Position numbers and translations under genes: made by a program. A DNA stretch of 64,000 nucleotides from Amoebophrya sp. A120 (taxonomy: Eukaryota; Protista; Dinoflagellata): NCBI GenBank assembly GCA_905178155.1, contig CAJINV010000004.1, positions 876,629 to 940,628 on the forward strand, read 5' to 3'. The notes under the pieces are model-generated. The model searched no databases. It was given only the letters and a program-made list of their open reading frames with translations, and was not told where the DNA came from. Shown piece after piece: positions 3,536 through 54,500 of this stretch (its first letter is position 1; each line of letters starts with the position of its first letter).

Positions 3536-6500
3536 CTAGTTCTCCCCCATTGACCAAAGCCTGTCGTTGGTTTTCAGGCAAACAAACAGCTCCGCCCAAT
3601 TTTCTTTCCACAACCCGCACTGCGCCTGCGTGTCCAGTCGCTGATTCAGTCCCATGTACTGCTCCCCGCGGGCGAGCGAAAACCCGAAAGGATCTTCTTT
3701 CGACTCAAACCGGGGCCAGTGGGGCAGCGGCGGCAGAAGTTCTGGGTGTAATATCAATGGTTCCTCATGCTTGCCGGTCTGCCCGTCCTTCGCGGTGGAC
3801 GTAAGAACGAGACCAGAAGTTCGTGTCTTCTTCCTTGTACTACTTTCATCCACTGATGAAAACCTCGTTGTGCTATCATCTTCGAGCCGCAACGCCGCAA
3901 AACCGAAGCTCCCGATAGAACTCCGCGAAGAGCCTTCAGCACACGAGTCCTCATCCGGAACAGCCGTGCTCGCGTTGCTAGCTATGGAAGCGTCAGGTTT
4001 GAAATCGTCAAAGTTGAAATGATTTGCCATGCATAAAATGCAAGGCATGAAGTGTCTGTCTTGCCGGGATGGCAAGTGAGGCCGAGCGTCAGCCAGTTTA
4101 GGGCTTGAAGTAGAGCTGCTAAAGGAGCATGACAAAAGCAGTCGTCTGTGCACAAACAGCATGACAAATTGAGTTCTGGTGCTCGGAAAATTTGTCATGC
4201 ACCGCTTGAAAATTGGGTATCCAACTGGTATCCGTTTTATGCATGGCAAATCATAGCAACTTTGTCGATTTCAAATAACCTGACGCTTCCATACTAGCGC
4301 GGGTGTTTGTCGTGGTGTAGTCGGCACCAGGGGACATCAGCAGTCCCGCTTTCTTTATTTTCCCAGTCGGTAAGCTCGTCGGAGGTGGAGCACCGCTACT
4401 GTTTTGCGCACAACGCCCTTGCTGCGCTAGTTCTGAAGGAGCAGCCAGCTTCTTCCCTTTGTTCGACGCTCTCGGCGAGATAGTTGTGGTTCCAGCAGGA
4501 GATGATTGGAATTGCACCTGATACCCGTGAAACGGGCTCGATGTTTCCGTTCCTGTTAACATCTTCCCCCCTGTCAGCTGCAAGGTTGGGGAGCAGGAAA
4601 TCTCACCTTCTTGTTCCAATCTGGCCACATCTTCCGGGGCTAGAAAGCGTTTCATCACCATCAGGCGATTCTTAACTTTCTGCTGCTCCACTACTTTCGA
4701 TACCGAGGACACGACCCGTGTTTTTTGCAGACGTCCCTGCACAGATTTTTCGACAGAAGCTGCTTCCTCCACTCCAGCACTCCGACTCATCCCCGATGGT
4801 GAAACCGCGCCGACAGTAAAAGAGGATTGGGATGGCTCTGTCGAGGTACTACTTTGTTCCGACATTGCCAATGTTTCTTTCAACCTGCGATATTCCTGCA
4901 AGAGCGCCGATTCCAGTTCTTTTTTTTTCATAAGAAACCCAAAATCTGTGAACAGCCCGTCGTTGTGGTTTACTGTTGTGGAAGAAGTTGTTGCAGCAGT
5001 TCCACCTCCCACCCTTCCTAGCTGTGCTGCGGCTTGTGGAATTGGTCTTTGCATTGGGCCTTCGTGTCGTGACTCGTCCAGTGGTCCACCAGCAGCAGTT
5101 CCGGCAGCTGCTGAAGTTCTTCCCAGTCCATTCGGATTCCCAAAAATCGCGAAGTTGGCCCAGTACCGCGCCATCTGACTCGCCAAGGTCGCCATCTCGT
5201 TTTTCTTCTTCATCGACACAGACACAGAGGTCTTACTGCCGATTCTAAGAACTCGGTCGTGGTCACCAGCACAGAATGTTGAACTAGAAGTTCTTTTCAC
5301 CTCTGTATGTTTCGCGAACAAAGGCCAACTTTCCCAGCCGTGCGGGACTAAAGGGAGATAATTTTCGTCGTCGTTATCGTCCACATACCCGTACTCGTAA
5401 ACTGGAATCCCCTTCTCCGCCAGAACGTCGCTCGCAAATTCCGTCGGACAGGTGTACTCCCAAGAGGTGAAGGCCCGCTCAGTGGCGAAAAACCACGACT
5501 TGTGCTTCTTGAAGGGGGACTTCTCGTCCGTAATCGGCAGCGTCGGCTTAGACTGCGATTTCGGGTGCGAGAGGTAATTGAAATAAGAAGTACTGGGTGA
5601 ACCAGCTTGTTCAATAACATCTTGGTCGTGGAGGTCATCGCCTTGTTCTGGTTCTCGATCATCCATCACAACATCCTGGTCTTGATGTAGTTCACCTCCA
5701 GCCGCGGCGGCCCCTGTTTGCTGTACTAAATCCAGATGGTCACTTGCTTCCCCAGCTGGTGCACCACGTCGACCAGCTGACGCAGCCACTCCATCCTCGC
5801 CTCCTCCTGCCTCCAACAGTTGAAAGGAGGAAGACCCTCGCCGCAGCAGCCGACCACTCGCCTGGCCGGCCCAGGAGTCTCGGATCCGGGACCACACCGC
5901 TTGGTAGGCACCCCGGCCGAACTCTCGCAGGTCGTTCAACAGATTCACAGCGCAACAGCCAGCACCTCCGTTCGGACCACTGGCGTTGAGGTTGTTGTAG
6001 AGAATTGAGAACGGCTGTACTAGCATTCCACCCTTGTTGGACGCAGCAGCAGCTGCGCGGTCCTGTTCCGCATCCCGAAGGGTATCACTTTCCGCGGGCG
6101 CGTACGCGTCCGCGAGCTGTTGACTGAAATCGAAGAACCAGGAATCTTGATCTTCGCGAGCATCAAGTTCCGGACGTTCTTCGTGTGTCCTCTTCGTAAA
6201 TCCGCCTTTGGCTGGAGGACTTGATGCCGATGTTGACCACGGTTCTAGGCTTTGAAAATTTCCTTGATTTCTTGCCACCTCGGTCCTCGCCGGTGAGGTC
6301 TTCCTTTTTTCAAGGACCTGATCCGCTTCCACCACACCTCCCGGCACGTAGAAGGCCCATTTCAGATACTTCAGGAACGCCTCGCGACTGGTCAAAAGCC
6401 TGCGCCAGCTCAGCGTTTTGCGTTTCGTTTTAGTTCCAGATTTGTTCTTGAAGCCATAATTTGGCTGCATGTTGGAAGAAACTACACCATCACGACCCAC

Positions 6501-9500
6501 GGTTGCGGTGGTCCCTTGTTCGACGTGTTCTTCATCTGGAGCTATCATCTGGACATCGCCGGACGAAGAAGAAGCTCGACTCGTGGTCGCAGTACCAGTC
6601 CCACTGCCCGTCCCATTGCTCGTTTCGTCTCCACCCGATCCGCCGCTCAAAGTACCACCTTCTGCGACGCTAGAAGACGCAGAGGAGGTCGACGTCGAGC
6701 GCTGCATCCCTGATGCTGTTCCATCGTGGCCTTGATGTTCCTCGCCGTCAATGTCCATGTTCAGAATACGATCGGCCTCGTGTTGCAGCAGCTGCTGCTG
6801 CTGTCCATATTCAGAATGCGCGGCTCCCGCGTCACTCCCACCTCCGGTTAGTGGTGGTGCAACCGTTACCGGCACCTCGACCTTTGCCTCTCCCATGAAG
6901 TCCAAGCCGTCATCCCGCGTGTAGCCGTGCAACACGGGTTTCTGTGCGAAGTGCACCCCGGCCGTGCCGTACTTCAAGATCTCGGGCATGGACGCGAGGA
7001 TCTGTTTTTTGTCCACAATCAAGCTCGAATCACAGCCGGAAAAGCAGGGCGACGGAACCGGGAAACCGGCCAGATCGTACTCGGACAGCGTTTTGTGTGT
7101 GTGCACCTGCTGTTTCAACCACGCAGCCATGCAAGTCTGCTTCTCGGAGTTCTTGCGAATATCATGGAACGACGAGGACGAGTTGTTTGTTCCAGCAGCT
7201 CGCGATGGCGGTCCACCTTTGCGGTCTTTGTCACTACTTTCACTTTCCTTTGCCAGTTGTAGATCCTGCCGGCTGTTCCCGAGTTTGCTTCTCTTCAGCG
7301 CAGGAACTTTTGGCGAGTTCGCGGCAGTGGGCGGTTTCGTCGTAATTCCACCACCTGGAGACAATGATCCAGAAAATTCTTGCTGGAGATGTTGCAAAGA
7401 TGGGTCTCGAAACAAGGGCAAACTGCCCGCAGCACGGCTCTGTGGCCACGCGGTGGCAGGTCCACCTCCCGCAGCAGTTCCGAGATGTCCAGCGCCAGCG
7501 CCCGCAGGAAGAACGCCGCTGCTACTAGTACCTCCAAGCTGCAAGCATTCCGGTTCCTGTTTCAAATATTTGGTCGCCTGCACATACAAACTTTCAAATT
7601 GGTCCTCTGCCACATCCAGCCCCGCCGTGCACCACCCGTTAAAGCCCCCACTACTCGCAATTACGTTGGAAAATAGGTCGAAGCTCTTCGGCGAGACAAA
7701 ATGCGCGGAGGCCATGCAAGCCCCCGAGGACTGCCCGAACAGCGTCACACGGGTCTTGTCCCCCCCGAAGTGGTGGATGTGTCGCTGAATCCACTGCAGG
7801 GCCAGGCGCGAATCCAGCAGAGACCAGTTGGCGTAGTCGGCGTCTTTCTCCTTCTGATGATACGGGTATGCTGTGCAAAAGTATCGTACTCGTATAAATG
7901 CTAATGCAAGTCTTGCATTACAAATCTTGTTCCTAAGGCAAATCTGCATTACAAATTTCTCATGCTGATGAAATTTGTAATGCATTTATACGAGTACGAT
8001 ACTTTTGCAGTTCATAACGGGTCGCCTGCTGCAACGGCACCAGTTGTAGTACCGCTGTACACAAGCCCAGTGCTGGCCGCGTGTCCTAGCGTTCCGGCGC
8101 GGATTTGCAACGAGACAAAGAGAAATTCCTCCCTCGAATACTGGAGGAGATTCTTCAAAAACTGCTTCCCGTCGGTTTGGCTCCCGTCCGCAAAACAAGA
8201 GCCCGCGAAGTACACGAAAACGGGCATTTTCTTCGTGTGCTGCGCTGAGGTAGAAGTACTCGTCGTGCTTGTCGCGGTTCCGCCAGCAGCAGGGGCTCCT
8301 TTGACGGGTGGCTGCAGAAGTTTTTGGTGCGGCGATGATGTCTGAGTCGCAGTAGTAGAAGACGTGCCCGCGGCGGAAGCTGTAGAAGATTGGACTGCAG
8401 TTCCAATCTTTGTTCCCTGCCCTTGTTGCTTCGCCTGCAGTTCCAACGCCCTCCTGACCGGCATAGTGATGTCGAGGCGCAGGCAATTTCGGCTCGAGGC
8501 CTGGTCCGGGTTCCGGTGCAACTCGCCGTTTTGGCACCCGGATCGAGACTCAATCGCGAAAAATCGAAAGTTGGAAGGGGAGGGTGGAGGTGGTTGTACG
8601 ACTGCCACAAATGACGATCCTTGCGCTGCAGGAGCTCCTGAGGACAGTGCGTGTTGGTCCTCCGGGCGGAAAGCGGACAATCTCATCGAAGTTGCGTCAT
8701 CTTTATCCTCTCCCTGCAGTTGCCCACTATTCGCGTTCTTCTTCATCGGCACTCGGCGCCGGGTGTTCTTCGGAAGCGAATTCGACGGCGGAGATGCAAC
8801 TTGTCGCTGCGTAGACACGACCGTGCTGGTTGCCGCTCCGGCACTCGCCGCCCCGGTACTAGCGGCTCCAGCAGGTGGCGCATCAGCTCCTGGGACCACA
8901 AAAGCTGCGGGCTGTGCCACAACTACCGGCTGTCCAAGCTGATCCGCCCTCGGCGGTTTCGGGGCCTCCCAGACCTCCGCCTGTCCGTACGCAATCCCCT
9001 TGAAAGTCATATGGGACTCTCAAACGTTACACTCTCAGCTGTTACATGAATTTGTCATGCTAAACCGACCGAAACCACTACACAACCTGTAAGGGCACCT
9101 CACCGCAGATGGTTCGGCCACCAGGTCGTGGAATCAGGCGGACCGAAGCCATCGCCATCACGCTCGGGCACATCATCCTACACGCCAACTTTACCTTACT
9201 TTCGCCACCAGTCCAACTTATCGCCAACATACGTTTAACGTTCGCCAACGATCCAACTTATAGCGCTCACAAACTGCGCAGGGACCGACCAGGCTAACTG
9301 CTATGAGGAAGCAGCAGCCTGCAGCTGGTCCCATGCGTACAAAGTAGATACTATTCGGAATCTTACGGACACCGCAGGCACGAAACCAGCCTGCGATGCG
9401 GTTTAGGAAATTCCGGTAAGCATATGGCAGAGCCTTTATCTTTTGAAAGCCAAGCACCTGAGAGCCAGGCAAAGGCTAGTGTAAAGGTTGCAGCTGAGAA

Positions 9501-11465
9501 TGAATCGACGGAGCTGCACATCTTGACCTCACGATCCAAACGAGGCGCGGACGTGACGGACGATGGAGCCGCTGCGCAGCTAACATAGAAGCGCAAAACG
9601 TCAATGCCAGGCCCATTGTCGATTCCACGGCGGGAAAGCTCCCGCGTCGTGGCCCACACCATCTCCCCCAGCGCTGCCAAGCCTTGAGCTCGCATCTATT
9701 GCGCGCCCCTTTCTCGCATCTATTGTGCTTGGGGAACAAGACTCGATTGAGCTTGTTGCTACTGGCTTGGGCGAGCTGGGGGATGAATTTGTCATGCAAA
9801 ACTACCTCAAGCCGCCAGATGATCAAGCGGCTACGCATGACAAATCTCCGAAGGGCTAAACAGGGCGTAAATCTGTGCCAGCTCTGTGATGCGAAAGCAG
9901 CAAGCTTGCCTCTTCGGCTATAGCTGTTCTTGCGTTACAAATTCATGCAACAGCTGAGAGCGTAACGTTTGAGAACGCCATAAGTCACCACCTGCGGGTC
10001 TGAGAACGGGTCGTCTACCACTACCTCGTCGCGTCGAGCGTGGCCCGCTACTTCTTCCCGCCCTTTTTGTTTCTCGAACTTCTTGTTGCTCGACGCCGGT
10101 AGTTCGGTCACGTAGGTCACTTTTCCGGACTTCTGCAGGGTGTTGCTGGATAAAAAATTCACCTTCGAAGATAAAGAAGAACTGCTCCCCGGTCGTCCAA
10201 CTCCCAAAGTAGGTGTACCAGCACTACCACTCGGCGAGTTGTAGAACAAAACCTTGTCGACTGAAATCGCGATTTGCTGCGGTATCGGAACCCTCTCTTT
10301 GTTACTTGTTTTCACCAGCGGAGCAAGTGCGTCGACGTGCAGAGTCACATGCGGTTGGTGATACTGCTCAGGACCTCCTGTAAACGAGTTCTGGTCTTGT
10401 ACTTGCAGCTCAGCTGTACCACTGATCATGTCTCCGCTGCTGGCGGGCGCGAGGGACCTGGCTCTTTCGTTTTCCATGCCCTTCCTCTCGTCCTCCCCAA
10501 CATTGCTGTCTTCTTGCAACTGGATGATTTTGAAATCGGCGCTATCCGCAAAGGAAATGTCGTCCTCGTCCACGACGGTTCCGTAGCGGCCGACAAGATT
10601 CGCGGGCGCGGATGGGACATCCCGCACCCGGACCAATTGGCCCGCGGTCCACGCTGTGAAAGTACAGATGTTCGATGAAATTTAAGTACACAAAAACAGG
10701 AGGCTTCGGCTTGCTTTTATTGCAAAGATCTCGTCCCAAGAAGTAACAAGCATCGCTGTGCTACAAGCTCGCAACTTAACAGGTCGCATCTATGTTCCTG
10801 CTTGTAGGTAGCTGGCGATTAGTGTCTCAACCGATCGCCACCGGAGCTTGACCGATCGCCAACGGAGCAGGCACAAAAGGGAAATCTAAAAAACAAAATC
10901 TACAAAACATCAAAAATAACATCAAGTACGGATGACACAGGTGTGAAACCCCGACCCTCCGATGCTTCCGTTGCAGCCGTTCCCTTCAAAGCCAATCCGG
11001 CAGCACATCCCCCCGGTGCCGCACGCGGCGCAGGGACCGTTTTCGTGGTCGCATATCCTGTGCAAAAGTATCGCACTCGTGCTAATTGCCTTTATGCATT
11101 ACAAATTCAATTTTTCATGCTGAGAAAATTTGCAATGCAGTTTGTACTAGTTCGATGCTTTTGCAATGCATATCACAGTGGTTCCAACAATCGTCCTCGC
11201 CGGGCTGGAGAACTATGGCTTCACCGCCCTCACCGCCGCCGCCCATGTTCCCGAAAATATTGCAGGCGTCGCCCCGACTGCTCCGGGTTCTGGTGAGGGC
11301 GGAAACAGATGAAGCACGATAGAGTATCGTCACCGTGAGGACCATGGCGCTCAGCATTTGTGCCATTTGTAGTCCTCTCTTGCATTTTTTTGCTCGCAAG
11401 ATCATCTTCGGTAGCTGCGATGACCAGGTGCGGAAAACGCCACCTGCACCAGGCAAAAATGACAT
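3536..11465 (-). CDS. Type-B carboxylesterase/cholinesterase-family protein with N-terminal hydrophobic segment and Cys-rich domain; 6 exons, ~2026 aa
   Basis: Exons approx 11465-11173, 11048-10930, 10653-9983, 9004-8017, 7861-4294, 3977-3536. Motifs: VTFKGIAY, NCLRLDITMP, PVFVYFAGSCF, NWSLLDSRLALQWIQRHIHHFGGDKTRVTLFGQSSG (nucleophile), GYTRDDG, PHGWE, YWANFAIFGNPN, HWPRF...QCGLW. One GT-AG intron (10929-10654) and four introners. Confidence 0.85.
3983..4293. mobile_element. Introner (family I, TATGGAAGCGTCAGG termini)
   Basis: ~55-60 bp imperfect terminal IR; flanking 5-bp DR ctagc. Removing 316 nt joins the two esterase ORF frames. Confidence 0.9.
7867..8016. mobile_element. Introner family A (TATnnnnTGCAAAAGTATCG)
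   Basis: IR termini; DR acggg. Removing 155 nt gives GDPYHQKEKDADYANWSLLD. Confidence 0.92.
9010..9982. mobile_element. Introner family D (TATGG..CTCAAACGTTAC) carrying a nested 722-bp insertion
   Basis: ~50-bp IR; DR agtca. Removing 978 nt gives DPQVVTFKGIAY. Ends align with the 216-bp copy at 24703-24918. Confidence 0.9.
9061..9782 (-). ncRNA. Putative retroposed structured RNA / SINE-like insertion with 15-bp TSD
   Basis: Flanked by atgaatttgtcatgc at 9046-9060 and 9783-9797. At least 6 stem-loop domains with G-U pairs favouring the minus strand; no convincing ORF. Confidence 0.6.
11054..11172. mobile_element. Introner family A
   Basis: TATCCTGTGCAAAAG / CTTTTGCAATGCATA; DR tcgca/tcaca. 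Removal joins CWNHCD-HENGPC. Confidence 0.88.
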
Positions 11466-11497: not shown

Positions 11498-14400
11498 GAG
11501 AGAGAGAGAGATAACCTATATAGCAGATCAGATCAGATCAGAGTGGCGACGCGCACGCAACCACCGGCGGCAGGGACGACCATAAGGGTCAGGCGACTCC
11601 CCTTTTTTCGAGGGGTAGAAGAGGGCCAAACCCGCACGCAAAACTTCGGCGGGCCTAGATCGATCAAAGAAAGCTCTTGTGCGTGAACGCTACAAAAAGC
11701 CAAAATTAATCGAAATAGGTCTTGTAATGAATAGCCTTCAAAGACCCGACGTCCTTATGTTCTCATGTTATTTAGCTCCCGACGGTGATCGCAGCACCAG
11801 GAGCCCACACGAACTTGAAGAGTAGCGCGCGGCTAGCAGAGCAGAGAAGGCGCGAATCGCCGACCTTCCACAAGCGGAGGCCAAACTGTAAAATGTTTTT
11901 TCCAAGCAGAGCTGTAGCGAGCGCAATAGCGCTGAGGAACAGGTAAGCTAGACAGGACAATAGCAAGCTAGACAGGACTAGTAAACAACGCACGCCACAC
12001 AGTAGAACGAAGGCCTTGTATCCGCTCTCCCGCTATCGTGATGTCGTTTCCACCTCGCAACGCCTTTCTGTGGTCCGTCTGATCTACCCGCGGATTATGC
12101 GGAGGCGTTACCCTCGTCGAAGGCTTTCGTGGGTGAATCCGGGACAGTTTTGGTAGTCAGTTCGTCAAGGTCAAACCGGAAGGCGTAGGGATGGTTTACC
12201 TGTGGCCTTGTAGCACCGCTGCTGTCTTGAGCGTACCGCTCTTGGCGCGCACGTAAAAATCAAGACTTAGGCTTAAAGCGGGCTATTGTTTGAATGAACC
12301 TGAAAAGCTGAACAAAAGACGACAGGTCCCCGCAGGTGCTCTTCCACGCTACCTGCTGGCGAACCGAACTAAGGAAAACCCCTCCTCAGACTAGCCATCG
12401 TAAGCCGAGCGGATCCCCTGCGACGGCTCGACGCGGCTATTTTAGCGCGTAAGCCTTATGGGCTTAGACGTCTTGAGCTTTTTGTATACTTTCGTGGCAC
12501 TTTTATCTAAGCACTTCTATCTAAGCTCGTTGCTCTAGGAAGGGCTTAGCGGGTGAGCGACAGCTGCGTTTTATGTATACTGTTCTCCCCTGATGCCCTC
12601 CGCGCTTTGCGCTCGCGATCGAGCTCAGTAGGGACAGTCTTCGCGTTCTTCGTCCTTCTTAACTATGCACTGCAGCTCGGTGCCTGTAGCTAAATTTCAG
12701 CCTCAACACACGCCTCAACATCATCTCACTTTTCCCCCGATCTTCCTGGTGCTGCTCCTTTATCCCCACCTCCCACTTGGCGCACCCACGGTGCCTGACT
12801 TCCGGCTCCGGAGAGCCCAGGGGACGCACTGTGTGTGGTTCCGCTCCTCCCGCACTAACGCCCCACACTTGCCCTGCCGCCTGAGGTATCTCTTGCCACC
12901 ATGGCCAGACTGTGGGGGGGAGGGTGGGGATTTCTGCAGCGCCTCGTGGTGCTGCCCTGCGGTTTGGCTCGGTGGCAAAATTGCGCATGAGAAGACAGGC
13001 TCTGGGGGTGGTCGGGGCTGTGGTTTTTTCGTCTGGTGTTTGGCGCCGCGCCAATCAACAGAAGGGAAGAAGCTGCACGGTGCCGCTTTTTCTGCTGTTT
13101 CTCATGCTGCTGACGCTGTCGAGCTACAGATCGCCGATCCACTTCGCAATTTTTTCTAGGTCTCGCTCGTGCACTTTCGTCTGTGCTTTTTCGGGTTGCC
13201 ACTCCAAGACCTCCTGGAACTCCGCCGCGTTGAACTTCTCCTGCCCCGCCCGTATCGCGTTCGCTAGCCCCGTGGGAAGAATTCCCGCGCACTGTCTCGA
13301 GGCGGCTTCGTAGTAGTTGAGAATGTTCTTCACGTTTTTCGGCTCTTTTAAATAACTTGTGCGAGATTCGCACGACTTTTGTCGTGGCCAGCCTAGATGT
13401 TCTTTTCGCAATTGCACTAAGTGCACATCTTCGCACTCATACAAAACGTGGTCAGTGCTTGGGGTCACTTTTTTCGCGCAGATCGGACAACTCATGTAAC
13501 TGCTTGAAGGGTTCCTGGCGTCGTGTACAGTCTTTCCCATGCCAAGCTGCCCCTGGTTTCCCACCCCTAACCATACTAGACACATTGCGTTATCTATGAA
13601 GCGAGGGCGTTTTTCGTGACTTTGGTACTGCCCTAGCTCTTCGGACCTGCGTAGTAAGGCGGGGTGGGTGCTGCTGTATCCCCTTGGGCAGCTGTACACT
13701 ATCTGACTGACTATCTTCCGCAGAAGCTTTTCGGTGATGACTTTTTCAAAGGTTTTGCGTCCCTGTGACGAGTCTCCTACGTGCTTCAGGCCTCTTGTTG
13801 CCATTGCGTCTGCAAAGTCGTTAAAATAGCACCCTAAGTGCGACGGGCACCAGTTAAGGATGATCTCAACCCCCGGAGCCGATGCTTGTTCAAGACGTTC
13901 CAGGGCCTTCACGATGTCAATCGCCATGACGTTGGATTTGTCGCGCAGTGCTTCTATCGCCATCACCAGTCCGTTGGAATCGATGTAGAAGACGTGTCTT
14001 CTTATTGATTTTAGTATTGCTGCTGGTATTTTTTCTAGTATTTCGTTGATCTGATGCATCAAACCGAAGCACTCGCCGTCGAAAGAATCCGGGTTTATCT
14101 CTAGTTCGAAGTGGATCTTCGACTCCACTCCGCAGAAGCTGGCCACTACTGGCGCGGGCCGTGGCGCCGTCGGGAGAACCTTGCGCCAGGTTGCTCCTCC
14201 ACCGCTTCCTCTGTCGCCTTTCGCCCCTCCGTCGGTGAAGGTGGCCATCGTGTCGGCTCTAGTCAGGTGTCGCCGGGCTTCCTTCTCTATCAAACGCGAG
14301 ATCATTCGCCGCGTGTTGTTTTTCAGTTTGTGCTTCTTGATTTCGGCAGGGTCACGAAGACGGAATCTACTTGCAATTTTACTCATTGGGAAGACGTGGA

Positions 14401-15171
14401 TCTTGTTCACCCCCTTCCAGAACTGCCTGCCTACCTGCAGGCTAGCCGCGCTTGCCGCTATTGGTTGAAATTCTTGATTTAGTGCTATTCTGTTCATTCG
14501 ATTCGTCCATGCTTCGTCGCAATGCGCCCATAGCGGATTGTCTTTTAGTACTGTTGCTGCTACGGGGTCGCGGAGCGAGGAGATTCGCTCTGCGCTCGGG
14601 ATGTCGTCGGGGGGGAAGTCGTCGCCATCTCCTGCTGCGTTCTGCGAAGCCGCACCGGACGACTGCGAGGCAGCTACCGGCGGGGCCTGAACCTGTGAAG
14701 GGGGGCGGGGCTGAGTGCCTGCTGCACTCTCTACTTCTTTGCTTGGCCTGAAATCGGGCACCTCTTCCTCCTCCTGGTGGAAGGGCCAGATTCCGAGCGC
14801 GGCCCCCTTGTAGAAAGTCATTAATGCCTCTACTAGCAGACTGTCCACCGGGTGCGGCAGCCCTGTGGCATTGTACATGACCGAATTGCTGCAGTGCTTT
14901 GGAATGCCTAGCTTCTGTTTTATTTTTGTTGCAAACTCTTTCGCGATTTCCTTCTTTGCTGTCTGTGTGAAATACGGAAATGTCACTACGGAAACCGATG
15001 TCACTGCTGGGAATGCAAAAGATTCGATGAGCATCTTGATTTGTTTCTTGCTCCAACCTTTTTCGGTTTGTAAAAATGCAAACTCCTTTCCGACTTTTTT
15101 CAAAACCTGCTCTGCCTGGGAGTTGAAAGAGTACGTCCCGTCGTACGTTACTCCGAGACTCTTCCCAACCC
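11498..15171 (-). mobile_element. 5'-truncated non-LTR retrotransposon (RNase H-containing clade)
   Basis: RT C-terminal remnant KSLGVTYDGTYSF, RNase H, CCHC-type knuckle, ~1.6-kb 3' UTR, (TC)n tail. Candidate TSD cggaaaga at 11490-11497 and 15172-15179. Confidence 0.75.
13124..15170 (-). pseudogene. Truncated LINE ORF2: RT thumb remnant + RNase H + Zn knuckle
   Basis: TFTDGGAKG...GECFGL...FYIDSN...LNWCPSHLGCYFNDFADAMA (RNase H D-E-D-D) and CPIC-x7-HVLYEC. No RT core or endonuclease in the window. Confidence 0.8.
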
Positions 15172-16754
15172 CGGAAAGAAGTAGTGGCCGCTCGAGCGGT
15201 GCAGATGCTGAAGATTCATGTAGTTACATTGCAATTTCTTACGATTTCTTCCAATTCAATTCGATTTACAAATTACGTGAAGCAGTAATTTCTTCGTAGA
15301 AGTACTTGGTTGCCATGCGAAGGATTCTTTCGTTACCAATTGTTTTCGTCCAACTAGAGCCCGGTGGTCGAGACATTAGATATCATCGACTAATCCGTTT
15401 ACATACATGCTACCACCTAGCACGCAGAGTATAGGATGAGGATGATCGTCGGGTAGATCGGCAGCTGACCATCAATCAACAGCCTGCTCTGCAAATGCAA
15501 CGATAAAATTGAAAGTAAGCTGCTCGCCCCACGTCAGAGCAAAGCTCATTAGAACTACTACGCTCGAAAAGTTCTTCTACATAGACCGTGATCGAGTCCA
15601 AGTGAACAATGGGAGGAGCTCCTTCCACAGATACTAGACAAAAAAGCGCGGCGGACCAAAAAGAAAAGCCTTGGATCACCTTCGCGGAGTGGTCTTCACT
15701 TACTGCATAACGCTTCGCAGGGGCAGGCAAAACGCTGCTGCAGCTGCACTTGCTACAGAAACATATACGAGCGCTGGCTATGATCGTGTTTGACTGACTT
15801 GCAGCCACGAGCTGCAGTGTGATGTAAAGCGACACAAGTGACCAATTGCGATGAGGGATCTTCAGCTTCACGCCGATGTGGAACTAAAAGACGAGGACAA
15901 TCACAATTCGATAAAAATACACATTATTCGATAGTAGATTGATAGTTGGAGGTGGACAATATCAACAACCACGACACCGTCAACGTCAAGAAACGGAATG
16001 ATCCTGCTTCTGAAAGCGCTGTTGCACTGCCGACGATGAAAAGAATACTCGTGTTGTGACTGCTCCTCGTCGTCAGAACTACCGCTCCATTGCTTCATGC
16101 ACCATCCTGATTTTCACCATTGATTCGTCAGAATTCAAAAGACTCTGCAATGTCGTGTGACGACAGAAATTAGCGAACGATGCTGGTGTCCAGTCGATAT
16201 ATTTGCAAAAAAGTAGTGCTGTAGTCCTTCACCACTCGTAAAGCATCAGGTGTAATATTAGCAGTGGATAAAGAAGTTGTGCCATCTTCATTGATTATTT
16301 GGTAAGCAGGCACTTTGCTCATGATTCCAAGCCGCCTGAAAATCGGTCAAAATTATCCACCTGGACGACGAAGAGGATGATGCTCGTTGTGATTTCGTAC
16401 TGAAAGCACGCACTATCTTCTGCCGCCATGTAGTAGGCCTAACACTTGGACTAAGTTGAAGATCAGGAGCACCATCGGGCCTACTTACTACTTGCATCGA
16501 TCGTCCACCATTAATCATTTGACTCGCTTGTTGCATCCTCAGGCGTGTTCGAAAAGGCCCTCAGAGAAGTAGGCAAATGCAGCAAATCATGCTGACGATT
16601 CTTCAAAAATTGTATTTCTGAAAATAAGCTTTCATTTTCTAGGGGTACCTGCAGATCATAGAGCAGATACAGAACTCATAATTCTTGTGATACATCTGAT
16701 AATATAAATATATCATGATGTAGTTGTTCTTCTTCTTATCACCGTCAACACCGT

Positions 16755-20315: not shown

Positions 20316-21112
20316 AGAAACATCCTCAGCTGTATTTTTCCTCATAGGGAAAAAAAAAAAATCAAGCATATTTGTAGATCAGAACTCAAGGCGCGCAGCA
20401 CCGCCCAAGCGGAAAGCAATTCACGGCAAGTTCGGAAATCATGCGCCTGCTGTTTATTTGTGAGTGATGGGATTGCTTTGAAAAGGAGGACTCATCGCGA
20501 CGGTATGGCGCTGAAAAGCATGGCCAAGAAGTGCCTCAGTTGGCCAAAATTGTGACTCGGACCGTCGAGGCTGTAATGCGGAGAAGGCAAAAAAGATGCT
20601 TTTTTTGCAAAAGCAAGCTGCTTTTTTGATCAAAATCCTTGGGATTTTGACGTCCGAAACCTTGCTATGAGTACTCATTTTTTTTGCTATGAGTACAAAT
20701 AACTTCCACGACGGAGTTCTGGATCAGAACTCTCTGAAAAAGCAGCTCACTTTGATGCTATAAGACATAGCTTTTCCTAGGGTCAGGAAGAAGAGTGAGT
20801 ACAAATACGGTAGCAGAGGGAGAAGCTTTTTTTGCATTCAATTCCCGATGCTACGGTGGCCACACGGGGTCACTTTTTTGCTCAGGCGCGACGGTGTGCT
20901 GTTTTTCTTTTTGCACTGCCGCCGTGATTGGCTTCAATTGGTCTGCTTTTCGTACCCCAAACACCATCGCTATGCAGCCTGATAGATGGAGGCTGTACCC
21001 TGTTCCGGAGAACCTCCTGAAGGGTGGGCCTGCTTCTGATACATAAAAACCTGCGCAATTTTTATTTTTATTTTTTGGCCCTATGAGGAAAAATACAGCT
21101 GAGGACTTTTCT
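20316..21112. mobile_element. MITE-like element with 27-bp perfect terminal inverted repeat
   Basis: tcctcagctgtatttttcctcataggg (20323-20349) is the reverse complement of 21079-21105 and extends imperfectly outward. Internal ttgctatgagtac repeats; no clear TSD. Confidence 0.65.
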
Positions 21113-24112: not shown

Positions 24113-26648
24113 TCAGTGAAACGCCCTCCGCGTTTTCTCCAGCAGAAACTCGTAGAACGCGAACATGAACGCCGCTTGACTGACCGTCTGCAGCAGCTTC
24201 GGGCCCAGCCCCTTGAAAAACCCCTTGAAGAAGCCCTCGAGCTCCAGGATTATGCAATACAAAATTTCCCGCACATGTACAGCATGCATCACAAATTTCG
24301 CCAATTTGTAGCGTAAAACTTGTCATGCTAAACTAGAATCGAAGCCAAGTTTTGTCATGCAGAGACCGGATCTGTACGTGTACGGGAAATTCACTGTGCA
24401 TAAGGATCTGCTGCATGCACGAGAAAAACGTGACGTCGTTCGAAACCAGGGTGTATCCTGTGCAAAAGTATCGTACTAGTATAAATCGCAATACAAATTA
24501 GCTCAGCATTAGCATTACAAATTTAAATTTGTAATGCTGATTTACCTTAACAACTAGATTTGTAATGCATAACTGCAATTAGTACGAGTACGATACTTTT
24601 GCAATGCATAGCGTGCGCATCCGGGTCTGCGTCACCTGCAGGGGGTAGGTGAGCACGGTGGCGATCGTTTTCGTGATGCTGCCAATGAGGAAGGCGGCGA
24701 AGTATGGGCGGGCTCTCAACTGTTACATTCTCAGCTGTTAAGTACATGATTTGTCATGCAAAAACGCATGACAAGTTCTTGACGCGCTAGATAGCATTAG
24801 AATCTCTCTGCGCCAAACCTGTAATGCAAAAGGCGCAATTTCCCCCCGTTCATTTTTCCCATTCCTGCATTACAAATTCATGTATACAGTTGCGAATGTA
24901 ACATTTGAGAACTCCATACGAAGGCGGAGATGGTTGCTGTAGATTTTATAATTTGCGGGGATGAAGAAGGACCCCCGCTGTTGAAGTAGTCGAGGTACCG
25001 TTTTTTCAACACGTCATACAACGCGTACTGCAACACCGGATTCGAAACCAGCCACAACGAAGTTGTCAACCCGTCCCAGAGGGACAGGAAACCGTTTTCC
25101 TCCCCCATACGGTACGCGACCCGAAACACGTTCTGCATTTTTGCCGTAGAAGGCATAATTAGCTGATGATGGTGTTGTGCATAATTGCTGGTTTGTTCCT
25201 GCTCCGCTGTTGAAACATTCTTGTCATTCTTTTTATTCGGACTCATGACGGGCGTTTTCGCGGTCACTAGGGGCGAAATCGGGCTGGTGCTCGCGACCGT
25301 TTGCTTCGACGTGGTGGCACTCGAAGCAGCGGAATCGTTCATCAACACCGAGGAATTCCTGGCTGCGAGCATGCAACGCATGTTTGCTTTCCAAAGCGGT
25401 TCGGTTAGGAGCATGTTCAAAACCCCGGCGACGAGCGAGGCGACGAAAGATTGGAACGCGGAAATTTCCTCTACTTTCTGTATTTCCGCTTTCGCAGCAG
25501 CGGCGGCGGCGGCAGCAGCGTCACCCGCAGCAAGTCCTAGGGCCACTTGTTGACTTTTGCCTGCTCTTCTACTCGCCTGATACGCCACGAGCAGCTTTGC
25601 CACCACCTTCTTGGTCCACTGGAACAGGTAGAAATACACGAACTGCGACGTCCCGATCGTGGTCAAGACGGGTACTAGACCACTGTAGAATCCCTTCACA
25701 CCGGCGAAAATCTGCTCGAGTTGCTTCTTGCGCTGTTCTCGCTTATTTTCATCAGCTTTTTGCTCCTTTCCACCGCTCATCTTGACAGCAGTGGTCCCCC
25801 CGGACGGGGAGCCAAACAGGAGCTGCATGCCGACGCCCGCTTTCTCCTGCTCGGCCTGCTTTGCTCTCCTCCCGAGCTCGTAAATGACCCGAATGCGCTT
25901 ATCAAATGTAAAAATGTCTGGGTCTGGAAGAGTGCATGTTTGTCATGCTTGTCTGGCATGACTCTTAAATCTGTCATGCACGTTGCCCAAGAGCCGCGCT
26001 TTTCTGTCATGCGGAGACGCAATTTGTCATGCAGAATAGGCAACACCTACAAGCTCAGAAATTTGTCATGCTGACCCAGCACTTGTGGCCTCCTCATGCT
26101 ACGCCACTCAGCATCACAACTTTCCAGACCCAGACATTTTTACATTTGATAGCGCTGGAAAACGGTCAACGTTTTCTCCTCCTTCCGCGACTTGTCCATC
26201 TGGCTGTGGGTTCGCAGCACGTCCAGCGGGTAGAGGAGCAAGCCCGTGCATCAAAAGGAAAAACGCCCCCTCCCCATACACATACTCAAAGGGCGACTTG
26301 TGTAGCATGATTTGTGATCACAAGTCAGACTGTCATGCTAGAAGGCAAGAGATGTAGACACTGCAGTGCTGGCTGGCGTGGGAAAGCATTGCGTCTTCAG
26401 CATGACAGGAAGCAACTGGAAGCGGAAAACAGCATGACAAATAATTGCCTGCAAACGAGGGGGCGGCGGCGTCTCTTGGCCTTCTAGCAATACAAGTCGA
26501 TTTGTGATCACAAATCAGCATCAGAAGTTTTCTTTTCGATATGGGGAGGGGGGATTTTTCCTTACGATACCGCGAGGACGGAGGACAGCGCGCCCACGCT
26601 CGCATGGTGGAGCAGAGAGGAACTTGGTTGCTGACTCGGGGAGGACAT
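24113..26648 (-). CDS. Mitochondrial carrier family protein, PMP34/SLC25A17-like (peroxisomal adenine-nucleotide/CoA carrier), 6 exons, ~470 aa
   Basis: Spliced: LAGLLLYPLDVLRT...GFYSGL...LLTEPLW...LWDGL..SLWLVSNPVLQYALY...TKTIATVLTYPLQVTQTRMR...GFFKGLGPKLLQTVSQAAFMFAFYE. All five introns are introners. Confidence 0.88.
24251..24402. mobile_element. Introner family E (TATGCA...AAATTTCC.GTACA.GTACA)
   Basis: DR aggat. Removing 157 nt gives QQILELEG. Confidence 0.9.
24454..24610. mobile_element. Introner family A
   Basis: DR gggtg/gcgtg. Removing 162 nt is in frame. Confidence 0.9.
24703..24918. mobile_element. Introner family D
   Basis: DR cgaag. Removing 221 nt gives SAFAAFLIG. Confidence 0.9.
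25900..26151. mobile_element. Introner family B
   Basis: Perfect ~30-bp IR; DR gcgct. Removing 257 nt gives VFQRIRV. Confidence 0.92.
26249..26569. mobile_element. Introner family C (.ATC..AAGGAAAAA..CCCCCTCCCCATA)
   Basis: DR ccgtg/ccgcg. Removing 326 nt gives VLAGLLLYP. Confidence 0.85.
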
Positions 26649-46700: not shown

Positions 46701-49700
46701 CATCAAAATATCAGCGTTGATCAGCTTGGCGCAGGCCAGCTGCATCTTCACCTTCCAGCCACCGGAGTAGGTGGTGATCGGGTTGCACATGTCCGCTGCA
46801 GCCTTCAGGTTGACGCCCTTGGCCTTGTTCTTGAACCCGATCAGGCCGAGCTCCGCTTCCGCGTCGGCCAGGGTGATCGGCGGAGACTTCTTGTACACGT
46901 TGTTCACGGTGTCCACGCAGAACTCCATTCCGTTCAAATCGATGTTGAACTTACCCAGCGGCCACTCCTTGCTCTCTATGCAACACAAATTTCTTGCCCT
47001 CGCACAGAACAGCACGACCCAGAAAAGAGAATGATGCAACGTCATCAATGATTCCTCTCTTCACGCGATGAGAACGACAGGGGAGATCTCGAACTTGTTC
47101 CGCGAACCTCTTTTAACATGCCTCTTCAGTGTACTATGAATCTACTGTGCTTCGTGTTCTATCTCGGGAACAAAATTTTCACTGTGGATACTCGGTTCTT
47201 CGAGCATGCGCTCCTCGACCTCGTGCTCGACGAAGATGGTAACCAACTCGTCGCGCTTCGGGAAGCCCTCAACCTTTTCCTTGGAGATGGCGCGCATCAG
47301 GGTGGTCTTACCGCAGTTGTTCGGTCCGAGCAGGGCGTAGAACTTGTTGCGCTTCAGGTGCAACTTGGTGTCACGGAGGAGGGTAAGCGTTCCGTAGGCG
47401 AGGGAGAAGCTGCCCTTGTAGAGATCCGGGGCCGGATCCTCATCGATGAACTCGATCTCCGTGTTCTTACCAGCGTTGGCAAGCTCGTTCATGATACCCT
47501 CCACGGCCTTGGGGTCGGACACGTACGGTCCGAGGACCTCCTTCCAGGCAGCGAGATCGTAGCTGTGTTGGTGGTGGAGAGAATGGTGGTTTAGGATTTT
47601 AGGAGCAATTAGGCGGGAAGAGACGATTTTAAAGTCATTCGAAATCGATTTGTTACTGCTGAAAGGGAAAAGACGAAACAGTACTTCGCACTCAACCCGC
47701 CGCACAAAGCATAATCAACATCGAACGATTGAAAGACAGTAATCTCGCTCTTAGGTGCAACAGTCCTGATCAAGAACTGCTAGTGAACAACAGTATACAG
47801 CTCCCATTCCGACAATCTTCAACGAATGATAAAATTAAAAAACAACATGTTTACCAGTTCGCCTTGTTCATGGAGTAGGAGACCTTCTGCAGGTAGACGG
47901 CGACGGATTCGTTCAAGAAGCCCAAAGAAGTGTGCTTGTTCGCGACTTCCTTGAAGTCCACCTCCGGCTTCGGGCCGACGGCGTGCAGCTTCTGGATGGT
48001 GGCCAGGCACTTCTCCGCCATCTCACGGCAGTCCGGGTCGGAGATCTCGGCGGCGCGCTTCTCCACGAGGGGAAGAATCTCCGGGAACAGCGGCTGACCC
48101 TCACGCGGGTCATCGACCAACTTACACCTGAGAAAGAGGGTTTGCTTCGAAATTTGAAATCAAAGATTGCGTGCAAAGCATCAATTTGCACTTTGCTAAT
48201 TTGCGGAAAGACGAAAATACTATCCGAAGAGATTGGCAATCTTGACTGTCACTACGTTAAAGAACCTTCACCCCACAACAAAAGGGGAGAAGGGGTGAAC
48301 GCGCAGTTGGTGGTTTGGCAGAAAAATTAGGAGGAGTTCCACGGAAATTTCGAAATTCCGCGCTCCGCTGGAATTCTGCACAAAGTGAAAGTCCTTACCT
48401 ATCTGCATGACAAGGAATCGAAAAAAAGGTGATGAAACAAACATATCTTAGAGTGTATTACAAGGGGGGGCTGGCACAGATGACAAAACCACAGATGAAC
48501 AGATGACACAGATGACAATTTTTGAGTGTCATGCAAATTTTGAGACACAGATGACAGATGACGCCACCACTCTCCGCCATTTTCCGTGTCGCTCGGCTTC
48601 CGCATCAATCAGAATCCGGTCGTGGGAATCCGAATTTTATCGGAGTCCGCCTGTGCGTTGCAAAAATCTAGGAGCTAGCTCATGCCTGTGCGTTGCAAAA
48701 AATCTAGGGTCGGTTCGTGCGTGTGAAAATGAAAATAGTCCGTAACACGCGGACAATAAGCGGGACGCTGGCAGAAGTGTGACGCTTTTCTTGGAAATAT
48801 TACTATGATGGGCCACAGAATCACGCCTGCCCTTCTATGCCTATGCATGGGCTGGCTTGCCCTTCTAGTTCTAAAGTCCTCTACTCCGCGCGCTTTTCTG
48901 TTCGAAGGGTCTTCTGGTTCTGGATAAAACTCCCGGGCGTCCACTCTGGGCTGCTGCTCGCCTATGAAAATACTACTACGTCATCTGTGTCTAATCAGTA
49001 TCCTGCAACTAGTTCTGTATTAGGGGCCGCCTTCCGCTTTCGGTTGTGATGATTTCGGGGTGCCGGTTTTTGATGTTCCAATTTTGTCATCTGTGTCCAC
49101 AGATGACAAAAGTTCCGCATTCGCTCAAAATGTTGAAATTTGTCATCTGTGTCATCTGTTTCATCTGTGTCATCTGTCATCTGTGTAGTAAAACAGTCTA
49201 ATATCTTTCTCGCAATCACTGGTTCTACTTGGATCACCACGAGAGCGCACATAAAACTAAAACAAGAACCGTATCATATTTATCAATACATGTTATCGAC
49301 GATGACGCAGCACCGACGCTGAGTGGCCTCGGACTTGGTGTTCAACCCACGCCAGAGCACCGGGGTGATGACCGCCAAGTGCGGAGCCTCGACGTTCTGC
49401 ACGAAGACGCACCCGGCGAGCTTCTCGACGCACTCCTCGACGTTCTTCAAAGACTCGTTCGCCTTGATGATGGTCGGGATAAAAGATTCCGCAACCACGG
49501 TCGCGCCCTCCTCGGAACCGATCAAATCCTTGTTGCCGCAGGTGAAGCACACGGTGTTCAAGGTGTCCTTGGCCTTGGCCTTCACTTCCTTCTTGATATC
49601 GTTCATCAGGAGTACAATGGGCTGGATGATCCACTCAATCTCGCGGGCGAAAGCCTTCGGGTGCTTCTTCGCGAACTTCTCAACCAGGGTGAGCGCAAGC

Positions 49701-51553: not shown

Positions 51554-54500
51554 CTAGGACAGTCCATTGTGTCTCAACAGCGCATCCACGGTTGGTTCCC
51601 GACCGCGAAATTCCTTGAACACCTCCAACGGCGCGACGCCTCCGCCGAGCCCCAGCACCGTATCTGCAAATTTTCGTCCAGTTTTTTCGATCTCCTTCTC
51701 GTTCTGCAGCCCAACTTCCTCGAACGCGGCGAAGCAGTCCGCGGACAAGACTTCCGCCCACTTGTAGCTGAAGTAGCCCGCTGCGTAGCCGCCCGCGAAG
51801 ATGTGCGCGAAGGAGCAGAGAAAGCGGTCGTAGGGGAGTAGTGGTAGGACGTCAAATTTGTCCGAGACCTTCTTGTCCACTTCCCACATGGTGTATGAGA
51901 GTGCACAAAAAGTTCATCTTCGCCTCCCCTTCTTCATTTGGCGTGCGAAACGCGATGTCTTTTCCTACGTTTCAAAAATTTTGCATGAGAGAAGTGAGAC
52001 CCACAAACAACGCCACGCTATGTTCGTTGTAGACTAAGATTTCTCACGCAGAGCATACACATTTCTATCCTAGCTCTCTCTGGTGTTGCTAGTTTTCCAT
52101 TCCAAAGGAGGGAGGCAAGGGGGTGTGGTTGTGCACTCTCATATGGTCTGTTCTGCCTTCTTCACCGGGTCGGACTTTTCTGCAGAGGAACCATCTCCAG
52201 CAGCAGTGTAGTACCTGGAGTGCAACTCTAAATCGACGAAGGAAAAGTGGAGCTGTCGCAGCATCATGCTTGCCGCCCGGTAGTTCTTGGCCTTCACCAG
52301 CTTCTGAAACAGCGCGTCCGGCAGTTTTTCCCCCGTTTCGTAGTGAATCGCCATGGAGTCCACGGTTGGCTTGTCGTAGCACCTATGGGGTCGCCAAAGT
52401 TGTATTTGCCTCAAGCTGTAAAAAAATTTCCGCGCGCCTTTTTTTGTATTTAATGCCCATCATGCTGCACGCGTATAGCCTCCCGCTATGTTGCGCACCT
52501 AATGAACTCGCTAGCTTATTCGCAGCGCTTCTCAGTGGCTAAAGACGGAGCTATCCGGCGCTGCTGCTCCACAGACTTGCCTTGGAGCGCCCGTGCAACC
52601 TGGAGGTGCTGCAGCAGGTTCTCTTGCAGTCCAGCCGCTAGACAATGGGTCTCAATCTGTGCAAGTCGGTCGGAGCCGCTGGCGCAAATGGAACCGGCCG
52701 CGGCTGCGCTCCCCCTTGTTTCTAATGTCGCGCAGCTGTGCGCGCGTGCACCGGCAGGCGCGCGCGCTTTTTGCCTTTGCGGCTTTTTCTTGAAAATGCG
52801 AAAAGCCCGAGAGCCTTTCGGGAGGGGTTCCGAGAGGGGTTCCGGGACCCCTTTTGGGGAGGGGTAGCACCATCGTGATTCGAAGAAAAAGCGGTAGGGT
52901 TTTTTTTTAGGGTTCCGGGCACCCCTGCGGCCCCCCCTTTTTGGAAGGGCTCCGGATAGGCCTTCGCGGCCAATATATGTGCGCGGCACCCGCTAGAGAC
53001 GACGACGCCAGGGCCTGAGTAGACATATCGGGGGGCGCTTGCAGCCTCACACCCTGACCCAGGCCATAGCGGCAACTAGCTTCACGGAGAGAGCAATCCG
53101 GAAAACAAAGCAAAACATTGCGGGCGCCCGGCGTTTTCTATGTGAAAACATCAGCCAACAAAGAACCCTCAACGCCCCGCCCTCCTCCACGTCAGTACTC
53201 ACCTACCTACTAGAGCTCTGCTGCTGACAAGCTAGCTAAAACAAACCGCGTTCAGGTCAGCCCTTCACTTGCGTGCACAGGTTTACTAGCTTTGCGACGC
53301 GAAAAAATGCGCGCAGAATTTTTTTGACGGTCTGAGGCAAATCGCCATGGAGTCCACGGTTGGTTTGTCGTAGCACCAATTTTCCATGAACTGCGACGGC
53401 TGCTCTACCGCGTCCCATTCAACGTTCCGGATTCCCGCCGCCATCCCCTCGGATTCCTTGGTCAGCATGTGCTGTAGCGCGTGGCCGAATTCGTGGAACA
53501 AGGTTTCGACCTCCCGGAAGTTCATCAACGACGGGATTTTTTTCTCGCCGCTCGTCACCGGCGGCGTTTATGGATTGCAAAAGTTGTACTATCCTCGCAT
53601 ACAGCGGCAACTGCGTTGCGAATTTTTCCAAGGACGACAATGAAGCTTTTTCAACATTTTGAAAATGCGCATTCAGGTCGAGTAAAAGCAGATCTGTCAA
53701 CACGCGGCGTGGCAGTTACTAGTACCAGTATGAGCACGAAACTTTTGCAATTATGCATACTGTCTGGTTGCACACCATGTGCGCGACGGGCAGTCGGATC
53801 TTCTTCTCTCCTTGCACCAGCTCCGGGTTCGCGGTCCTCCCGCACACCTCGTCCATCCACGCGCCGCCCTTTTTCGTTTCAGGCCGGGAAAACGGGTCGA
53901 GGTAGAAGTAGGAAACCACTTCATTGTCCTTGACTATCTCAAACACCATCACGTCCTCGTTCCAGAGGGAGACTCCGAGCTTTGTTTTTTCCTCGGCCGA
54001 CGCGATTTCCCGGATGGAAATCCCGAATAACTTGTTCGCCAGGTTCCACAGCCCCGATAGGACCTTTGGTAAGGGGATATCAACGGCAAAAGTTCTTGTA
54101 TCGCACGAGGGCGCAGTAGTAGCAATACTGTATCTAATAGATATGACTACAAACCTGCACCTGGTGATGTCTACTACAGGAAAAAATAAACAACTCAGCA
54201 ATTATGACAAGTTATTCCGCTTGTCGACATCATGCTAAAGAGCAAATGCAAATTTGTATATGCCACCAGTACTACCGCGAGGACACTTTCGCTTTTGCAA
54301 CGCGTAGGAAAAGTAGGGCTTCAGCTCCTCTTCGTTGAACTCGTATTTCATCTCTTTCATTCGTTCCGCGTAGTAGGGCACGTCCCACTGCATCAGCTTC
54401 TCGTCCTTCGGGAACGGCAGTTTTTCGTACTCCGTCTTCGCGAATTTCTCCAAGTCTTCCAGTTCCTTCACCGTATGCAATGCAAAAGCATCGTACTAGT

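Follow-up and report, generated by a model that had tools for sequence, protein, structure and literature searches.

A structured non-coding insertion in an introner of Amoebophrya sp. A120 points to target-specific retroposition

Retroelements that settle in other mobile elements

Two habits of retrotransposons lacking long terminal repeats (non-LTR elements) are already known, at least from the portions of the literature considered here: the targeting of non-autonomous DNA transposons and the formation of short, site-specific non-coding units. The former is exemplified by Tx1L, which inserts into Tx1D, and by the crocodilian Tx1-Mar and SINEU-3, which insert into Mariner-N4_AMi; SINEU-3 is flanked by a 16-bp duplication, its independence is shown by truncated copies and its transcription is possibly driven from the flanks (PMC4494074). 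The latter is represented by the short internally deleted elements (SIDEs) of R2 and R1, which combine a structured 5' domain with a conserved 3' end and, at R1 sites, are associated with a 14-bp duplication; 5' extensions acquired by template jumping have also been described for R2 (PMC3414825). Here we examine a 64,000-nt stretch of the genome of the dinoflagellate Amoebophrya sp. A120 (the window), in which a 722-nt insertion at positions 9061–9782 lies within an introner, an intron-forming element, at 9010–9982. Independent copies that share one end and one target motif make it very probable that this type of insertion arises by target-primed reverse transcription directed to an introner motif. 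More tentatively, we regard the insertion as one copy of a multi-copy, non-autonomous non-LTR retroposon family that homes to introners.

The locus recalls Tx1 and SINEU-3, where a non-LTR element and its non-autonomous partner insert into a non-autonomous DNA transposon (PMC4494074): preferred-site insertion into such an element is seen here at five of the five junctions among those listed. The differences are that the target is an intron-forming element of a protist, that the motif is common to several introner families and that there is no small nuclear RNA (snRNA) head. As the family is known from non-coding copies alone, it offers no protein from which reverse transcriptase (RT) kinship with Tx1 could be judged. 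With the R2/R1 SIDEs it has in common a short, non-coding, site-specific format, a structured 5' domain and a conserved 3' end, and template jumping is a model for a 410-nt extension in one relative; it departs from them in that no ribozyme like that of hepatitis delta virus (HDV) was found, the target is not ribosomal DNA (rDNA) and the parent element was not found.

The host element agrees with the introners described from Amoebophrya in its TAT start, inverted repeats, 3–5-nt direct repeat and non-canonical boundaries (PMC7789003), and some Amoebophrya introners have been ascribed to non-LTR elements (PMC12130899). The examined parts of these two papers describe no introner-targeted retroelements; a text search of the supplement of PMC7789003, figures excluded, gave 0 hits, and two 13-letter words of the element are absent from supplement 3 (of 14) of PMC12130899, a file of homology hits rather than sequences. 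A literature search likewise yielded no report of introner-targeted retroelements, with the proviso that Repbase, subscription papers and other supplements could hold the family.

The insertion and its host introner

The 722 nt are bracketed by an exact 15-bp direct repeat, with one copy at the 3' end of the element (9046–9060) and the other at its 5' end (9783–9797), as a preliminary description of this DNA had proposed. The minus-strand start of the 3' copy is the target motif GCATGACAAAT, situated where the terminal inverted repeat of the introner ends on its inner side. A 15-bp repeat alone is not rare in the window, where 18 others of at least 15 nt, spaced by 100–8000 nt, occur among the matches listed; this one is considered a target-site duplication because the empty site can be recognised in relatives of the host introner that lack the insert. 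The host element spans 973 nt on the minus strand and has 51-nt terminal arms, 86% complementary to one another, and a 5-bp direct repeat. Subtraction of 737 nt (insert plus one duplication) leaves 236 bp resembling the introner at 24703–24918, another relationship that had been claimed and that is borne out by arms 81–84% identical in self-BLAST. The body is 76% and 72% identical over 200 nt to two introners of a metagenomic locus, L009.

Deletion of the host element together with one 5-bp repeat brings two open frames into continuity. They belong to a carboxylesterase gene on the minus strand, whose downstream exons carry the Pfam domain COesterase, and the element is probably an intron of that gene. 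Its inverted repeats, a direct repeat of the 3–5-nt class, its membership of a repeated family and the frame restored on removal are all traits of introners. The introner hairpin is still predicted to form despite the insert, with a mean pairing of 0.89 in the window and 0.88 in L009.

Independent copies share one end and one target motif

Matches were listed for 20 sequencing runs, four of which were compared with the window sequence, X2, X19 and X20 lying outside this comparison. The copies in L009 and X6 were retrieved with insert-only queries, the junctions in X1 and X4 with a reference that included the introner. A metagenome scan with an 18-nt insert-only pattern gave 23 matches, of which one is a true relative (L009) and 22 are chance matches of 18–22 nt. 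Scans of viral sequences gave no true relative (two matches in one, none in the other), BLAST against phages and plasmids gave no match, and no second copy was detected within the window by BLAST or by two covariance models (best other hits at E 0.04–0.83).

The copy in L009 (6697–8018, 1322 nt) has the same 3' sequence, adjoins the same motif and is flanked by an 18-bp duplication. It resides in a different gene, where removal of the host introner again restores the frame, and while the bodies of the two host introners are 74% identical, the ends of the element are 96–97.5% identical. A single contig of X6 contains the last 74 nt of the element, bracketed by 12–13-bp repeats of the motif. Its flanks belong to a second introner family (by eye, 28/30 and 11/12 identical to 3992–4044), an empty copy of which occupies 3983–4293, with the equivalent site at 4032/4033 and a motif that deviates by one letter; the insertion lies 50 nt from the introner end in X6 and 51 nt in the window. 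X1 has a joint that links 9078 to 9043, with 12 other letters lying between them, and that can be read as a copy about 30 nt long whose duplication measures 18 bp; a contig of X4 crosses the same junction from the introner arm. The preliminary description had asked whether other copies with duplications of their own exist or whether the sequence is single; the L009 and X6 copies establish a multi-copy family.

Target-primed reverse transcription is known to leave insertions that are constant at one end, ragged at the other and flanked by duplications of unequal length; long duplications are also typical of it. Together the first three features argue against hitchhiking or a recombinase. Both the variable duplication and the fixed 3' end with variable 5' truncation are observed here: the 3' junction is identical in five of the five junctions among those listed, all at GCATGACAAAT and two of them from unbiased queries, and copies of 722, 1322, 74 and about 30 nt have duplications of 15, 18, 12–13 and about 18 bp, respectively. 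The retrotransposition origin suggested earlier is thus upheld by independent copies.

In X1, where the unique window flanks have a depth of 23–26 and the listed left-flank piece shows no differences, summed contig depth relative to the single-copy flank is about 50 and 35 at 9102–9185, 7–17 at 9186–9437, 3–5 at 9438–9647 and 10–17 at 9648–9773. Only the shape of this profile is used; with its maximum towards the 9061 end, it accords with a fixed 3' end and variable 5' truncation. Two further observations concern diversity within the family. The X4 contig (9041–9159) represents a diverged 3'-end subfamily, with 17 changes and 7 gaps over 119 nt and a depth of 125, far above that of other X4 insert pieces; an X1 contig joint at 9663–9760, with 26 other letters across the 5' domain, may indicate that some variants differ in their inner part.

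The window contains 28 occurrences of the degenerate motif GCATKACAAAT, where 0.08 would be expected, and 27 of them fall in introners (21 in detected inverted-repeat elements and 6 more by self-BLAST). Sequence comparison supports insertion aimed specifically at an introner motif, a point missing from the preliminary description. The motif, often in several copies and pointing either way, is found in introner families that are not otherwise related and is a candidate transposase-binding or splicing signal.

Anatomy and folding of the element

Read on the minus strand, the element consists of a 5' domain (domain A), a variable middle, two long stems, a variable repeat tract and a conserved tail. 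Domain A (9661–9782, 122 nt) is a multibranch fold with two CAAUAGA loops; it is identical at 119 of 122 positions in L009 (97.5%), where 410 nt of the insertion precede it. The middle (9425–9660) resembles its 359-nt counterpart in L009 remotely at most, the local score of 48, compared with 35±6, being reached by 3% of 300 shuffles. The two long 3' stems (9262–9424) are 82% identical to those of L009 and include four compensatory pairs. The GTTGGCG tract (9176–9261, period about 20/43) had been described as unstructured at about 9183–9260; the tract is there, and its nature is that of a variable-number repeat, 86 nt long in the window copy and 156 nt in L009. The terminal 115 nt (9061–9175), identical at 110 positions in L009 and devoid of a poly(A) tail, are the most abundant part of the family and may constitute an RT-binding tail. 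Neither LTRs nor terminal inverted repeats are present on the insert.

The insert as a whole folds with z-scores of −3.30 on the minus and −3.62 on the plus strand, and none of 20 shuffles is as good on either. All six stems and domains named beforehand on the minus strand fold as described, their stem-level z-scores being those of preselected stems against base shuffles. The further statement that the insert folds into successive domains stands in part, as structure is patchy. The strongest segments are 9661–9782 (z −5.0) and 9266–9425 (z −4.55); 120-nt segments reach −4.05 at 9661–9780 and −2.0 to −2.7 at 9221–9460, with no significant structure at 9061–9180 and 9381–9620. The additional 410 nt that precede domain A in L009 are unstructured (z +1.1).

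G–U pairs had been thought to favour the minus strand. The domain at 9665–9782, however, folds better on the plus strand (−58.9 versus −52.4 kcal/mol), and G–U content alone therefore leaves the strand unfixed. Minus-strand sense is upheld instead by the independent copies, because the junction at 9061 is invariant, and by covariation. A joint fold of the stems from the window and L009 contains 44 pairs, four changed on both sides, four on one side and none broken, compared with 36 pairs and three double changes on the opposite strand; on single-copy folds four double changes are kept, where chance would give 0.6 (P 0.002 and 0.0014). Between the two copies, domain A and the tail differ too little for such a test.

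Coding capacity and RNA families

The earlier statement that the insert has no credible open reading frame (ORF) agrees with our searches. None of the four ORFs overlapping it has a Pfam domain, and no RT or endonuclease ORF was detected in the 722 nt or in the 1322-nt L009 copy, which has no long ORF; Pfam and protein searches gave no match to an ordinary coding fragment. The first 220 nt of L009 contain several stops in all three sense frames, though the copy looks young, and two protein searches with its frames (88 and 353 candidates) returned nothing at E≤10, which is weak evidence. The RT-like string GDPLGP found where the L009 copy begins (5') was rejected, as no RT motif follows downstream.

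The Rfam search proposed earlier assigned no family, with 0 hits at E≤5 on the insert and, on L009, six sub-threshold hits (E≥0.52) and no match to U1 or U2; an identity with U1 or signal recognition particle (SRP) RNA was rejected. There is no tRNA match, and RNA polymerase III A and B boxes were not found with box patterns. The ribozyme function once suggested finds no counterpart in Rfam or in HDV and hammerhead patterns, which gave 0 hits on four strands (custom patterns, without a positive control). The element thus has neither the tRNA, 7SL, 5S or snRNA head and A/B boxes of a classical short interspersed element (SINE), nor, within the limits of those ribozyme searches, the HDV-like 5' ribozyme of R2-type SIDEs, nor the hammerhead and terminal repeats of Penelope-like elements and retrozymes.

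Proposed mechanism and competing explanations

In the favoured reading, an enzyme derived from a long interspersed element (LINE) would nick beside GCATGACAAAT, about 50 nt inwards from the end of the introner, bind the conserved 3' tail and the stems, and reverse transcribe the RNA from its fixed 3' end. A second nick 12–18 nt away would create the duplication, and early stops would leave copies of 30–74 nt. Because the site coincides with the inner boundary of the inverted repeat and the arm is rebuilt by the duplication, the hairpin would survive, and the insert would therefore leave the mRNA with the intron by splicing. The element RNA would likely be transcribed as part of the host intron and, after 5' processing, likely start at domain A. 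In the window copy, the 5' junction falls at the foot of the stem that closes domain A, the fold having been copied in full; stalling of RT would be expected on entry into a stem rather than on its completion. This favours a real RNA 5' end at this point, as does the absence of a long ORF from the 1322 nt of L009. The extra 410 nt of L009 could be a template jump, as in R2, or an uncut precursor. This extra part also contains a spliced-leader-like relic (L009 6918–6934) with exact 6-nt and 7-nt blocks of the dinoflagellate spliced leader, DinoSL (PMC5585692). It is seen in 1 of 25 loci and not in the window and, since the pattern was chosen after sighting and falls below the 9-mer rule in the consulted part of that paper, it is a lead only.

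Several points weigh against this reading. The covariation derives from two sequences, single-copy folds break 7/13 and 5/10 of the pairs concerned, the L009 antisense fold also yields three compensatory pairs (P 0.007), and the 18 variants listed are uninformative (six kept, six broken, six unpaired). L009 continues for another 410 nt, which means that not every copy has domain A as its 5' end. Contig depths, when summed, do not measure copy number. Off-target insertions may be unseen, as the junctions are among the matches listed only; those in X1 and X4 came from the introner-containing reference, and the orientation of the X1 joint is not given. Both long copies (window and L009) are sense to the host gene, a result compatible with co-transcription but not significant, being expected one time in four. 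The raw RNA of X18 amounts to two reads, both on the introner arm, the X4 and X6 contigs may derive from DNA, and none of the RNA runs compared covered host exons. Finally, an autonomous partner was not found, and the only LINE of the window has no sequence in common with the element.

The earlier suggestion of a SINE-like unit or a LINE 3' untranslated region (UTR) is upheld by the independent copies, and the choice between its two halves is a close one. With the same targeting and the same reverse transcription, the 722 nt could belong to a LINE that is itself autonomous and introner-targeting, as its long 3' UTR truncated at the 5' side; domain A would then be an internal UTR element and would coincide with the 5' junction by chance. 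We hold this to be nearly as likely as a non-autonomous unit: L009 does continue upstream, truncated copies are common, an 85-codon frame of L009 ends inside domain A, and the neighbouring LINE also seems to bear a long non-coding tail. Such a UTR would have to exceed 1.3 kb with an exchanged middle, however, and the stop-blocked frames at the start of the young-looking L009 copy tell against it, as do, weakly, the empty protein searches.

Other origins are considerably less plausible. Mobilisation in trans of a cellular structured RNA, for example an unrecognised snRNA or SRP-like RNA, would account for the strong and highly conserved fold of domain A, and U1 was not detected in two Amoebophrya genomes in the part of PMC7789003 consulted; this origin is nevertheless unlikely in view of the Rfam and tRNA results, the mosaic middle, the repeat tract, the lack of poly(A), the strict target motif and the truncated copies. 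Site specificity and the missing poly(A) tail would also suit a DNA-level insertion, whether at a recombinase attachment core or by a DNA transposon with a long duplication. The 5'-truncated copies with their own duplications largely refute it, however, and the variation of the duplication, the pairing of a fixed with a ragged end and the lack of terminal inverted repeats also speak against it; it is highly improbable. Equally improbable is a single old insertion spread by hitchhiking on its introner. Three of the five junctions, apart from the window and X6, are or may be in the introner family of the window copy; unequal lengths and duplications, host copies only 74% alike and, above all, the X6 copy in a second introner family largely refute it.

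Should the favoured retroposon family be real, it would be an introner parasite that finds its safe harbour in a dispersed and mobile element removed by splicing, rather than in rDNA, snRNA genes or microsatellites. Nested copies could underlie, and the retroposon may explain, some of the introners labelled as non-LTR. The occurrence of GCAT(G/T)ACAAAT across introner families provides a handle on the movement or splicing of non-canonical introns. The RNA folds are without Rfam match, and the partner, once found, would bring an endonuclease with a new target. A bolder and rather unlikely extension is that a lineage reading this motif uses thousands of self-removing introns both as safe landing sites and as a source of transcription, with domain A as an RNA of a new class, self-cleaving or nuclease-blocking, by which the element is released from the intron after excision.

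Other features of the window

A 5'-truncated LINE at 13124–15223 (minus strand) has a 699-aa frame from RT through RNase H, beginning in what we take to be the RT thumb and ending in a presumed zinc-finger-like segment; its 3' end was not located. Its 26 relatives, the full-length ones with endonuclease and RT domains, place it in an endonuclease–RT–RNase H family, and a search for longer relatives found none. It was rejected as the partner, as it has only E=10 words in common with the element and the covariance models gave no match. At 52346–53380, 41-nt direct repeats (95% identical, 994 nt apart) surround GC-rich non-coding DNA and possibly delimit a small terminal-repeat element. Two larger inverted-repeat elements, unlike the short introners, are located at 20333–21095 (about 760 nt) and 48475–49185 (about 710 nt).

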